Shown here: in pieces, positions 4,301 through 10,300 of the stretch
Layout of the letters: each line of letters begins with the position of its first letter
Position numbering within the stretch: the stretch's first letter is position 1
From: Amoebidium appalachense
Lineage: Eukaryota; Protista; Ichthyosporea
Length of the DNA stretch: 64,000 nt
Assembly: GCA_963693365.1 (NCBI GenBank)
Contig: CAVNZM010000013.1
Location: forward strand, 8,060,940 to 8,124,939
Reading direction: 5' to 3'
Position numbers and translations under genes: made by a program
Notes under the pieces: model-generated
Told to the model about the DNA's origin: nothing
Databases searched by the model: none
Seen by the model: only the letters and a program-made list of their open reading frames with translations

Positions 4301-7300
4301 GGGGGTGGGGGGGGTTGGAGGGGGGGGGAAGAGGGGGGGGGGGGGGGGAGATGGGTGGAGGGGAGGGGGCTTGGAGGAGGAGGGGCGAGGGAAGCTGAGG
4401 GAGGGGCAGAACCAACTTAAGCAGTCATCTATAGGCACCTTACGTTGGTGAGTGTCTGTGTTCATGTGCGCATATATGTAACACACACTCGCGTGCACAC
4501 ACACACACACTCTCTCTCACATTCACACACACCACACACTCACACACACACACTTTCTCTCTCTCTCTCTCTCTCTCTCTCTCACACACACACACACACA
4601 CACACACACACACACACACACACACACACACACACACACGTGTGTGCGCATCCAACACATGCACACGCGAGCACATGCACTTCCGCGCGCGCACGCGCAC
4701 GCGCACACACACACAAACACACAAATAAATACAGGAGCATGCACACACACGCACACAGGCACACATGTATGCATACAGGCGCGCATGTACATATGCACAC
4801 TCATGCCCACCCACGCCCACACCCACACTCACACACACTCTCTCTGCCCACTTTTTCTGTGTGTCTCTCTTTCTCCCTCCCTCCCTCCCTCCCTCCCTCC
4901 CTCCCTCCCTCCTTCCCCTACTCTCTCTTTCTCTCCTCCCCTCCCTCCCTCCATCCGTCTCCCCATGCCTTTCTCCTTCTGTCCCTCCCTCCCTCCCTCA
5001 CTCACTCACTCCCTCCCCCCTTCCCCCTCCCCCCCCTCCCCCCCCCCCCGCCTCTCTCTCTCTCTCTCTCTCTCTCTCTCTCTCTCTCTCTCTCTCTCTC
5101 TCTCTCTCTCTCTCTCTCTCTCTCTCTCTCTCTCTCTGCCTCTCTCTTTCTCTTCCCCCTCTCTCTCCCTCCCGCCCTCCCTCTCTCTCGCTCCTCTCTT
5201 CCTCCTATCTCTTTTTCTCTTCCCCGCCACCCTCTCTCCTCCACCTCCCTTCCCTCCCCCCCCCCCTCCCCTCTCACACGCACACAGTCTCTCTCTCTCT
5301 CTCTCTTTCTCTCTTTCTCTCTCTCTCTCTCTCTCCCCCCCCCCCCCCCCCCCTCTCTCTCTCTCTCTCTCCCCCCCTCCCCCCCCCCCCCCCCCCCCCC
5401 CCCCCCCCCCTCTCTCTCTCTCTCTCTCTCTCTCTCTCTCTCTCTCTCTCTCTCTCTCTCTCTCTCTCTCTCTCTCTCTCTCTCTCTCTCTCTCTCTCTC
5501 TCTCTCTCTCTCTCTCTCTCTCTCTCTCTCACTGTCTCTCTTTCTCTCACTGTCTCTCACTCTCGCTCTCTCTCCCTCCCCCCCCCCTCCCCCCCCCCCC
5601 CCCCCCTCTCCCCTCTCTCTCTCTCTAATGCACACACATACACGCACACGCAGACCAAAGTCAAGGCCAAGTCTGATCCCCTGAACGACTCCAACCAAAT
5701 CATGCAAGGAATGTTGAAGGTGAACCCCCTCCCCCGTTTCCCCTTCCCAGCTCCTTCTCCCATGGCCACACCTCTTCTCTTCTCAAAAGGGGGAAAACGA
5801 GCAGTAAAACCAGTACACACCCATATACCTACCCCCCCCCCCCCCCCCTCCCCCCTCCCCTCCCCCCCCCCCCCCCCCCCGCCCCTTCCCCCCCCCCCCC
5901 CCCCCCCCCCCCCCCCCCCCCCCCCCCCCCCAAAAAAAAAAGTTTAACCATTTGGAAACGGGGCTGCTTCCTTTGCCAGGAACAAATTCCTTTTTGACAG
6001 ACTTACGATGGAAGGATGGGAAAATGTGGGCCCGCGCTGCTTTTTGGGTTATTGCTTCATGGCACCCATCATTTATACCCCCCCCCCCCCCTCCCCCCCG
6101 GCCGCCCCCCTCCCCCGGCCCCTTCTTCCCCCCCCCTTCCCCTCCTCTCCCCCCCCCCCCCCTCCCCGCGGCTTCACACCCACCCACACATAAACACCTC
6201 TTATCCTGCCCACCCCCCTCTCTCTGTCTCCCCCCCCCCCCCCCCCCCCCCCTCCTCCCCCCACACCCCATCCACCCACCCACCCACCCATTCTCCAACC
6301 ACACGTGACATGCAATAGGTGCGTGACACGCTGAAGAATTGGCACCAGCGCATGTTTGTGTTGATCCCGGGGGCACTTAAGTTCTACAAGGTGCGGGGCG
6401 ACAAGCAGGTATGTGCATGGGCTTGTGCATGTTGCCAGCGGTATGTGTGACGGGGGACGGGGGGGGGGGGGGGGGGGGGGGGGGGGGGGGGTGTTGGTGT
6501 GTGGGTAGATGTGTCTCGCTGAGTGTTGGTGGGGGGAGGGGGGAGGGGGGCGGAGGGGGTGGCGTGTCTGTTTGTGGTTGGTGGGGTGCAGGTGGGGTGG
6601 GTGTGTCTTTATTTTTTTAATGCGCATCCGCGTGTGGGTGCATGCATGCATATTCTGTGGCCATGTTTCGTCTACCTCTAACCATTCCAATACTGCCGCA
6701 TGTCGAGCGAATGCAGCCATCATATGCTTCTAGCATGTAGTTTGGCTGTGTGTTTAGTCCTACTGACATCTTACGCCTGGGCTGGCAGGCTGTGTGGAAG
6801 GGCACGGTCAACCTTGCCGGGTGTAAGATCATGCCCCGGCCATCTAAAAAGGAGGGCTTCTGCTTTAAGATCTTCCACCCCACAGGTCCGCTGCTTACTT
6901 GCTCTCATTCTCTCTCCCTCTCTCCCGCTTTCTCTCTCTCTCTCTCTCTCTCTCCCCCCCCCCCCCCCCCCCCCTCGCCCCCTTCCCAACCTCCCTCCCC
7001 CCCCCCCCCCCCCCCCAAAAAAAAAAAAGAAAGTAATAAACAGCTGTTTTGCCCCCCCCCCCCCCCCCCCCCCCCCCGTTTTCTCTGTCTCCATGTCCCC
7101 CCCCCCCCCTCCCCTTTCCCCCCCCCCCCCTCCCCTCTTCCCCCTCCCCCCCGCCCCCTTCCCCCTCTCTCGCCCCCTCCCCTCCCTCTCTCCCCTGCCC
7201 CCCTCCCCCCTGCATTAGTTTGCACACACATCTTCACCGTTTTGCTCACCTTGCTTGCCTAAGCAACCCTGCTCGTCTTTGATCAAGACGGGTTGACCCG

Positions 7301-10300
7301 CCCAAGTTCAGTTGATGCTGCTGTCTGAGTTGGAGCGTCGTATATACGCGGGCTAAGGGGTCGAAACTCAGACGCAATTGATGACTTGGGTCCTCCCTGA
7401 GGATGGGCTCTGCTTAGACGCATACTGTGCACATGGCTGATGTTGCATACCTGAATGTTGCCTTTGCATGTGTCCTGCGCCATGCTTCTCGTCGTGTATG
7501 CGTACTTCGTACCGTGTTCCGCATTCAAACCCCCCCTCCCTCCCCTTCTCTATAGGTTAGGGAGTCGGGCTTATGCTCTATCTCTCTGCTTGCTTTCTTT
7601 GTTTTTTTTGTCTGCTTGCAGATTTTGTAGGCTCTGCGTTCTTAGATTGCTGCTCCTTGGATAACCCTCTCGTCTTTGGCCAAGACGGGTTGACTCGCCT
7701 ATTGCTGTTGAAACAAAGTATGGGTTGGGAACCACGCGCGAGAGGTTAAAGAGTCGGAACCCATGCTTTTGTGGAGGCATAGGAACCCCCCTGATGATGG
7801 GCTCTGTTCAAGTGTCTTCTGCCTGTACGCTTAAATTGTTTGATTTTGGATTTCCCACGTTTGTGACGCTTTGTTGTTGCTCTTTGTTGTCTCTTCCATA
7901 TTTCCAACCCTCTAACGCATACATCACCCCCCCCCCCCCCCCCCCCCCCCCCCTCTTTCTCACAAAGAGCCCCCACCGATGCATAACCTGGTAACCAGCG
8001 TCAAAACTAAACAGGAATCCCACACACACGGTGACACACCCATGCTTGCACCGTGTCGCACAGGCGCACACGCACACGCACACGCACTAGCACACACACA
8101 CACACACACACACACACACGCCTACACACACCCTCTCCGTGCACACACCTACCCTACCTTTCACTCACACACACCCTCTCTTACACACACACCCTCGTTT
8201 ACAACAACACCCTTCCTTACACATGCTCCTCCCCCTTAGTAATACGCACACCACAACGACATTTCTGTGCACAAATAGTTCTTGTTTGCACGCCCTAACA
8301 CCCAATTATACAGGAGATCCGATCTTTAACACCAAGGGGGTGGTCGAGTCGCTGCCCATCAATGCGGATGAAATCATCCTCAGGGCTGCTGATGTATGTG
8401 CAAACACCCCCCCCCCCCCCCCCTTCTGTCCTTCCCCTCTTTCTTTGTTTGGAAGATAATACTATACACCGGAAAGTGTGAATTCTATAAAGGGGATGAT
8501 AATGCAATTGAGCTTCAGGCAAACCTGGGGCTGTGCCTGAAGGTCTGTTACCGCCATGCATGTACACCGGTCTGTTTGGCCATGTTGATTCTTGGGAGCA
8601 TGGATACGGGGCAAGATGATTGGACTAGTGAGGGGTGTTGTGGCCGCTATCTCCCTGCCCTTGCTTGTGGCTCAATTTTTAACTAGTCAACCCTTTCACA
8701 CGGGCACACACGCATGCAAGAACACAGGCACGCACACACACATTTGCACTCGTAAACGCGTATGCACACATGCACGCACACACACTCATGCACGCTTTCA
8801 CCCACGCACACGCACATGCAGAGAGATTGAAAGAAAAGCGCCTACACAAGAGAATGAGGGAGAGTCGCATACACTTGCACACACACACGAACACACACAC
8901 ACACACACACACACACACACACACACACACACACACACACACACACACACACACACACACACACACACAGGAGGCCATTGGGCGTCAGTGGCTGCAGGCC
9001 ATCGAGACGGTCATTGCCCGGGGCAGTGTTGTGGACATGACGGCCAGAGACGATGAGGATATGGAGATGTCCTGTGGGTGTCCCGTGTGTGTGTGTGCAC
9101 GTGCATGCACGTGTGTGTGTGTGTGCATGTGTGTGTTTGTGTGGGTGGGTGGGTGGGTGGGTGGGTGGGTGGGTGGGTGGGTGGGTGTGTGTTTGTGTGT
9201 GTGTGCACGTGCATGCATGTCTGTGTGTGTGTAAGTGCATGCCGCTGTTTGTACACGTGTATGTGAGTATGTGTGCACGTGCATGTTAACGTATAGCCTA
9301 CGTGTCTTTTTGGTTGTTTTGTGTGTCTACATTGGTGTTCGAAGCATCACATCCCTCCGCTCCCCCCTCCCCCCCTCCCCCCCCCCCCAATCCTCCCCCT
9401 TTCCTACCTCTCCTCCACCGTCTTTGCACGGGCCTTTTGCTGGTTCATATTCTAAGTGAGGCATGTGACTGTCCAATTTCAATGTTTTCAGATCTTTTCT
9501 TCAGCCCCTCCTTCCCCCTAGAACACATGCACATAGGCACACACATTATCATACATAAAAAAGATAAGAAAGAGATAAGCGAGATTACCCTCGACCTCCT
9601 CCTCCCTCCCCTTCCCCCCCCCCCCCCCCCCCCCCAAACACACGCAATACACACACACACACACACCCCTGAAGCCACCTATGCAAAGTACACTCGTGGC
9701 CGGCCTGCAACTCATCTCAGGGGTTTGGCTGATGTGCATCTTACTTCCCTCTTTCCTTCCCCCCCTCCCCCGCCCCCTTTTCTTCCCCTCTGATCCACTC
9801 ACCCGTCTGCCCCATCATGACAGCCGGTGGGGACGAGGAGGAAGTGATGTCCGACAGTGAGCCGGACTATGATGACGACACAGAGAAGACCCAATACGTG
9901 CCTGCTGTTGGGGTGCGTGTAACTGCCTGTGCCTGTGCCTGTGCTTGTGCCCATGTGTGTGATGCCATTTTTGTGCTTGTCAAACGTTTGTACATGCAAT
10001 TGTATTCGAGTGGTTGTGCTCCCCTGGCATGTTCCCTGATGCGGTGTGCACGGAGGGGGCTGTGGTAGGGATACTTGTGCAGTACTCAAATCACACACAC
10101 GTGTGCTTATGTGTTTATGGAGGTGAATTGGTGCAGAAACAATAGAACACATCAAACACATGCACACAACTTGTATATCCCAACGATATGAAGTTATGGC
10201 CTGGACGACGTTGGGAAATCACATTTGATTGGCTGAAGTGGTATGTGGTATGCAGTTGGTGCCCTGTACTTACGCCTGATTGGTGGGTCTGCAGGATGAC

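Follow-up and report, generated by a model that had tools for sequence, protein, structure and literature searches.

A Hammerhead-like Motif with Permuted Block Order and a Probably Interrupted Core in a Repeat of Amoebidium appalachense

The window analyzed here is a stretch of 64,000 nucleotides (nt) from the ichthyosporean Amoebidium appalachense (GenBank assembly GCA_963693365.1, contig CAVNZM010000013.1, positions 8,060,940 to 8,124,939 of the forward strand), in which an earlier note had reported an intronic hammerhead ribozyme with its three strands in a non-circular order. This locus raises the question of whether the motif is a genuine hammerhead, how such an RNA would build its core, and what kind of element carries it. 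We designated the hammerhead blocks S (stem III strand, cleavage triplet, stem I strand), G (stem II strand, GAAA, stem III strand) and C (stem I strand, CUGAnGA). We consider it probable that the motif, with the order S-G-C, belongs to a high-copy Amoebidium repeat with (C)n tracts on either side, which is likely the 3' end of a Penelope-like element (PLE) of the Naiad/Chlamys type or a non-autonomous derivative of one, that it would cut as a monomer after U7331, and that its stem II is likely made with a strand lying upstream.

A permuted hammerhead motif in three copies

All three hammerhead strands were confirmed by coordinates at the places given in the earlier note, on the plus strand of what we call copy A (7210 to 7536). 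Block S (7323 to 7335) comprises a stem III strand (7323 to 7330), U16.1 at 7330, U17 at 7331 and a stem I strand (7332 to 7335). Block G (7358 to 7374) comprises the 3' strand of stem II (7358 to 7362), the GAAA of G12 to A15.1 (7363 to 7366, with G12 at 7363) and the other stem III strand. The second stem I strand (7393 to 7396) and the core residues C3 to A9, CUGAGGA (7397 to 7403, with C3 at 7397), occupy 7393 to 7403, and an outer stem pairs 7259 to 7265 with 7411 to 7417. The GUU triplet with U17 at 7331 was likewise confirmed, and self-cleavage of copy A is predicted at 7331/7332.

The motif recurs in copy B (7537 to 7925, plus strand; U17 at 7726, G12 at 7756, C3 at 7791), which represents a second subfamily, and in copy B' (36005 to 36412, minus strand; U17 at 36204, G12 at 36174, C3 at 36139), which shares 87% identity with B across 411 columns. 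The block order is S-G-C in all three copies, and the circular orders CGS, GSC and SCG of hammerhead types I to III are not matched by the Amoebidium motif. The non-circular order was borne out by a loose S-G-C descriptor, which recovered A and B when stem III was required to have at least 4 pairs, and B' only at a threshold of at least 3, with no matches in 60 dinucleotide shuffles. The possible novelty of this topology did not hold, as the order has been published as type SGC (HRIMA-1 and variants), with cleavage shown in vitro (Eckert 2023, PMC10085705).

The hammerhead core (C3 to A9, CUGAnGA; G12 to A15.1, GAAA; U16.1 to H17) is complete in A and B', and copy B has A13G, reading G at 7757, where most contigs read A. 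At the free position N7, copy A has G, whereas B and B' have U; this is the sole core difference common to B and B'. The earlier claim of a fixed core therefore needs correcting at N7 and at A13 of copy B. Stem I has 4 pairs in A, 3 in B and 3 in B'; stem III has 9 pairs in A, 11 in B and, in B', 3 followed by a C-A mismatch, the only one in that stem. Between the two subfamilies, stems I and III, the outer helix (P0) and the stem II helix discussed below differ in sequence while pairing is kept, as had been proposed for stems I and III and the outer stem. A search against Rfam gave no match at the gathering score in the whole window, and only two chance-level matches in 7200 to 7930 at an E value of at most 10. 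We conclude that A, B and B' carry a real, selected hammerhead-like fold, with a known block order, an undescribed internal architecture and a new kind of host.

The stem II partner and the layout shared with Naiad elements

The strand after CUGAGGA had been taken as the stem II partner in the earlier note. Our analysis suggests that stem II is most likely formed instead with an upstream strand, X (7295 to 7299, plus strand, with G10.1 at 7295; starting at 7692 in B and 36238 in B'), which pairs with 7358 to 7362; therefore, the core would be split between A9 and G10.1. In each of the three copies the X/II helix has five Watson-Crick pairs, with one C-G/U-A swap between A and B (GACCC/GGGUC and GACUC/GAGUC), and swapped pairs also occur in Naiads. 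Two loose-end consensi in one sequencing run (X3), after 7293 and before 7380, resemble a third subfamily and, if from the same element, retain four X/II pairs and the kink-turn described below.

The strand after A9 also pairs with 7267 to 7269, forming helix Y, stacked on P0. The 5' strands of P0 (7259 to 7265) and Y (7267 to 7269) fall within 7259 to 7269, and U7404 with the 3' strands of Y (7405 to 7407) and P0 (7411 to 7417) within 7404 to 7417, all on the plus strand; the pair probability in copy A is 0.95 to 1.0 for P0 and about 0.82 for Y. Hairpin Z of the inserted junction occupies 7272 to 7292 (plus strand), and the stretch around it is the best conserved between A and B, with 34 of 38 letters the same over 7265 to 7302. 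Stem III is extended by strands at 7301 to 7322 and 7375 to 7390 (plus strand), which are predicted to form a kink-turn from the bulge at 7311 to 7313, G7314 and A7315 on the 5' strand and G7380 and A7381 on the 3' strand. As kink-turn rules require, a 3-nt bulge, tandem G-A/A-G pairs and flanking C (canonical) and NC (noncanonical) helices are present in this prediction. The register is the same in A (G7314/G7380), B (7710/7774) and B' (36220/36156), and a second, weaker register is also present in each copy.

A descriptor of the full layout, which adds X and Y to the S-G-C order, recovered three of three copies, with no match in 100 shuffles or at any of 92 loci where the G and C strings occur by chance. 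These control loci, 3 viral and 89 prokaryotic, were the matches of the G+C pattern; 4 of the 92 had a weak S block, none had a stem III of at least 7 pairs, and a single one had an X-like partner of five Watson-Crick pairs at the same distance. A 19-base pattern was found at 9 loci in metagenome contigs, none of them alike beyond 19 to 27 bases.

The same arrangement was seen in Naiad PLEs. The 3' regions of the Naiad consensi of Craig 2021 were read by eye in a part of the 54 Naiads, under names taken from file order except for EuTe. Among these, the layout Y-Z-X-[extended stem III]-S-G-C-Y was found near the 3' end of five consensi from four animal phyla: Obim and Ovul from octopus, which are near-identical, EuTe from a clam shrimp, Plae from an acanthocephalan and Movir-2 from a box jellyfish. 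Their X/II helices are of 6 bp with an invariant first G-C pair (GACACC/GGUGUC, GACGCC/GGCGUC, GGCCCC/GGGGCC and GGGGAG/UUCCCC), and helix Y reads GGGG/CCCC, AGAGG/CCUCU or CGUGG/CCACG, is weaker in octopus, and is CCC/GGG in Amoebidium. The cleavage triplets of both Amoebidium subfamilies and the five Naiads were only GUU, GUA, UUC and AUC. The loop of hairpin Z (7280 to 7284 in A, 7678 to 7682 in B) reads UGAUC in A and UGGCC in B and Naiad-2_Movir; such loops, palindromic in part, could support kissing interactions from one copy to another.

We weighed this arrangement against an ordinary type-SGC hammerhead, in which stem II would use the strand after CUGAnGA through a 2-nt insertion and X and Y would act as a switch holding the ribozyme off. 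Such a helix of 6 pairs is possible in A, B and B', U-G follows CUGAUGA in published SGC RNAs as it does in the Amoebidium copies, and one or two inserted bases are permitted by Eckert 2023 (PMC10085705). However, this model requires the 2-nt insertion, one to three G-U pairs and the melting of helix Y, while a 1-nt insertion yields just 2 pairs before a mismatch. The helix energies are -8.7 kcal/mol (A) and -6.4 kcal/mol (B) for X and -5.4 kcal/mol (A) and -6.3 kcal/mol (B) for the post-A9 strand with its 2-nt insertion, favoring X in A and leaving the two models undecided in B. We preferred X mainly because of EuTe, Plae and Movir-2, in which, as read by eye, A9 is followed by C or U-C; no pair with C11.1 is possible there, and a standard stem II is excluded although the rest of the layout is present. 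We therefore regard an ordinary type-SGC fold as unlikely.

Naiad and most Chlamys PLEs have been described as having no canonical hammerheads; for Naiads just "core" and "half-core" strings were noted, with eight "half-core" cases in which the second core half lies 35 to 50 nt off, on either side (PMC8557442). Read by eye, four of these Naiads (Parc, Nbra-3, Hpol and Smim) are clean type CSG with an interaction helix of 9 to 16 bp, Ovul has the Amoebidium-like layout, and Esco has the S-G-C order with no clear stem II. Naiad_Esco and Naiad_Ptep share the S-G-C order with stems I and III present and stem II weak or absent. None of the Chlamys consensi showed the layout in motif searches, which miss motifs broken by line ends and do not amount to a survey. 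Separately, the entry before Naiad-2_Movir in Craig 2021 File S5 (Naiad-1_Movir by file order) has 3' strings that match twister P1 alignment rows, and this element may carry a twister ribozyme in place of a hammerhead.

Three further pairings or assignments for the Amoebidium motif were rejected. A box C/D small nucleolar RNA reading was set aside, its UGAUGA and CUGA strings being accounted for by the core and the kink-turn; a helix of 7297 to 7301 with 7348 to 7352 was discarded on the variation of G7300 in 35 to 39% of depth with no partner change among the variants listed; and in place of a G7300-C7336 pair, both positions were read as linkers.

The repeat, its proposed mechanism and competing explanations

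C-rich tracts flank all three copies; copy A is likely 5'-truncated at such a tract and is followed by (C)n after its 3' end. We aligned contigs of four sequencing runs to 7205 to 7920, which gave 10,501 contigs in run X1, 9,860 in X3, and 285 and 17 in two further runs; depth is no copy number, hence we describe the repeat only as high-copy. Depth is high up to 7540 and lower afterwards, and a consensus loose end before 7210, common to contigs, shows that copy A is longer upstream elsewhere. Along B, depth rises toward the 3' end, about 100-fold in X1, which fits 5' truncation, although subfamilies with just the 3' part in common would produce an identical rise. Joints at the 3' ends (7534 to 7536, and 7920) run through C-rich letters into copies starting at 7210 to 7732. 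These C-rich joints and loose ends appear to reflect a retroposon that is truncated at its 5' end and inserts at (C)n tracts. Head-to-tail joints are present in which the downstream copy is the truncated one; repeated insertion into C-tracts fits them as well as the pseudo-long terminal repeat (pLTR) tandems of PLEs do. We also observed that B (7537 to 7570) and B' (36412 to 36380, minus strand) start at the same point, with a pyrimidine tract ending in TAG-G and then telomere-like TTAGGG, as might be expected of a splice acceptor or of an element whose 5' end is defined.

We propose a mechanism in which A9 would lead through U7404 into helix Y instead of running on into G10.1, and the partner strand of Y would continue through hairpin Z into strand X, with G10.1-C11.1 as 7295-7362. 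A multi-helix junction would be held at the A9/G10.1 step, the RNA ends would leave via Y and P0, and the three core stems would still cross in the monomeric fold. The kink-turn would bend the extended stem III and bring X, the core and stem I together. Cleavage after U17 would follow the general acid-base chemistry of hammerheads generally (PMC11300833). Host read-through transcripts would be cut, and the element RNA would be released for reverse transcription by an autonomous PLE and insertion at (C)n tracts, in keeping with the RNA-release role proposed for PLE hammerheads (PMC4209133; bioRxiv 10.64898/2026.07.22.740005). Genomic copies run through the cut with no depth step, which speaks against a simple model in which the 5' end is set by cleavage, and therefore the template would be continuous there, being either re-ligated (circular) or uncut at that site.

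Several observations weigh against this interpretation. On the evidence of the window by itself, little separates the two stem II models. Stem I of B has just 3 bp, and T7394C disrupts a stem I pair in 9 to 17% of depth with no partner change among the variants listed; of the six internal positions in 7260 to 7416 listed as variable at a level of at least 4%, it is the exception, and the other five (7279, 7300, 7307, 7336 and 7391) fit the proposed model, being unpaired or at loop edges. Minimum-energy folds of B and B' have neither P0 nor Y, and the predicted fold of B is no better than shuffles (z = +0.54), in programs that cannot form crossing stems. There is no depth step at either predicted cut (A and B), and no pile of loose ends there among the loose ends listed. 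The Naiad layouts were read by eye, not by script, and two of the eight half-core Naiads (Naiad-3_Dst and Naiad-4_Dst) match no permuted form by eye. Neither a reverse transcriptase (RT) nor a GIY-YIG domain was found among 98 window frames (8 plus 90), the part before 20,000 being sampled at six exon-like stretches only, and the PLE link would rest on shared RNA layout and target preference.

The continuity of the copies through the cut site, with no step in depth, would also be expected of a non-cutting or very slow fold that serves retrotransposition as a protein-binding signal, for a kink-turn protein or the PLE reverse transcriptase. The conserved kink-turn register is consistent with this, as is the sense orientation of A and B in an intron of a host gene for which an A. 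parasiticum transcript shows splicing over this position. Hammerhead catalysis requires the core C3 to A9, G12 to A15.1 and U16.1, and a residue other than G at position 17. These residues are kept in both subfamilies and the five Naiads, and the triplet varies only as catalysis allows; we judge the explanation improbable.

Cutting in trans or in tandem dimers, with blocks from two copies giving a nested type II or III fold, has a precedent in the metazoan PLE hammerheads, which act as dimers (PMC4209133), and head-to-tail joints do exist. However, stem III with its extension, about 20 pairs, closes within a single copy; strands of A show no complementarity to those of B, and B' is a solitary copy. 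Nothing in the window copies calls for a dimer, and this explanation appears very unlikely. The notion that short motifs met by accident in a repeat accords with the lack of an Rfam match but is effectively refuted by the shuffles, the control loci, the compensatory changes and the same layout in animal Naiads.

The intronic position given in the earlier note was correct: A and B lie in the sense orientation within 6886 to 8313 (plus strand), an intron of an OSBP/ORP gene delimited from its splice sites, from tblastn of P0060 and from PF01237. P0060, a EukProt protein of Amoebidium parasiticum (Ichthyosporea), maps by tblastn to 25 window stretches between 1318 and 19824 with 87 to 100% identity. 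Two candidate minus-strand exons flank B', and one of them is ankyrin-like by eye, without a Pfam match. As a whole, the earlier reading was right in intron, order, predicted cut and compensatory stems but had missed the probable upstream stem II strand, the predicted kink-turn, the Naiad layout and the high-copy (C)n repeat, owing to which the motif is not specific to this intron.

Elsewhere in the window, intronless open reading frames (ORFs) at 58852 to 59313, 59713 to 60690 and 62694 to 63383 (plus strand) contain repeated Cys/His motifs without a Pfam match; that at 59713 to 60690 has 59 relatives, mostly unnamed metagenomic proteins, with PF01541 in two. These three ORFs are possibly virus-derived. 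A 57-nt repeat occurs at 506 to 562 and 57276 to 57332, 57 kb apart, with 96% identity, and together with local duplications roughly 120 and 180 nt long at 57567 to 57782 and 57791 to 58167 makes up another unclassified repeat family. An exon of a POT-family transporter (43696 to 44412, plus strand) and an F-box domain (56184 to 56522, minus strand) were also found.

Significance and comparison with known systems

On balance, we lean toward the view that this is an undescribed hammerhead architecture in which the presumed indivisible block of CUGAnGA and stem II is opened and restored through a junction of several helices plus a kink-turn. It would be the missing ribozyme of Naiad-type retroelements, and its occurrence in an ichthyosporean would date it to before animals or point to movement between animals and Amoebidium. 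Amoebidium lives on freshwater arthropods, so acquisition from an animal competes with an origin that predates animals. If the RNA cuts as predicted, a whole junction can be accommodated in the core between A9 and G10.1, and the assumption by Eckert of an inseparable CUGAnGA/stem II strand needs revising, as does the conclusion by Craig that Naiads thrive without canonical hammerheads. Scrambled hammerheads would then belong to the genomic make-up of a major clade of retroelements, with hosts ranging from a unicellular holozoan to four animal phyla, and the hammerhead role in Penelope-like transposition would become testable in a culturable protist. The junction would also be a natural place for inserting regulatory RNA domains beside the ribozyme core.

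Within the literature covered, which includes few subscription papers and no bioRxiv supplements, no report links permuted hammerheads to Naiads or places a junction between A9 and G10.1, and none describes hammerheads in Ichthyosporea. The available parts of PMC13159263, PMC13725137, PMC10162972 and PMC11244446 likewise do not make that link, describe such a junction or report ichthyosporean hammerheads. The string "Ichthyospore-" is absent from the main text of PMC8557442, and "Penelope," "ribozyme" and "SINE" are absent from that of Sarre 2024.

Type SGC shares with the Amoebidium motif the S-G-C order, crossing stems I to III, a full core, U after A9 and C11.1 before GAAA (PMC10085705). 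These RNAs, with published rates of 0.007 to 0.19 per min, have been reported from metatranscriptomes only and not from genomes of known organisms, and type CSG is known from two metagenomic sequences (Eckert 2023, PMC10085705). However, type-SGC RNAs are up to 104 nt long with a linker between stems I and II of typically 3 nt, compared with 22 nt in copy A, and their block C is assumed to be indivisible (PMC10085705), whereas in Amoebidium a strand upstream of the core blocks likely contributes to stem II. The Amoebidium motif additionally has helices Y, Z and P0 and the predicted kink-turn. The published SGC descriptor (I-II linker of 0 to 8 nt, CUGAUGA(U)G, stem I of at least 4 pairs) would miss these copies, A for its 22-nt linker and G at N7, and B for its 3-bp stem I.

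In the pseudoknot-containing hammerhead of Zhan 2024 (PMC11300833), helix II is likewise remodelled by extra structure with the core kept, but there G10.1-C11.1 adjoins A9-G12 in one short stem, and the available text describes no inserted junction or S-G-C order. Non-long terminal repeat retrozymes and PLE minimal hammerheads resemble the Amoebidium repeat in being short, non-coding elements of about 300 to 400 nt thought to be PLE-derived (PMC4209133; bioRxiv 10.64898/2026.07.22.740005). Their hammerheads are of type I and frequently occur as dimers within tandem arrays, whereas the Amoebidium repeat has a non-circular, predicted monomeric form in dispersed copies; retrozymes are recognized by a tandem array with one type I hammerhead per unit, and here the copies are dispersed with the S-G-C order.

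The Amoebidium repeat resembles Naiad and Chlamys PLEs in its truncated 5' ends, in having microsatellites as targets, which in Chlamys are (C)n, and in the occurrence of non-autonomous derivatives (PMC8557442). These PLEs have an ORF with an N-terminal GIY-YIG domain and RT; no RT was found for the Amoebidium repeat within the window frames scanned. Naiads are known from animals and Chlamys elements from green algae, spike mosses and slime moulds (PMC8557442), whereas the repeat described here is from an ichthyosporean. Compared with these systems, the S-G-C order is known, and what appears to be new is the A9/G10.1 junction with its upstream stem II strand, the kink-turn and the link to Naiads.

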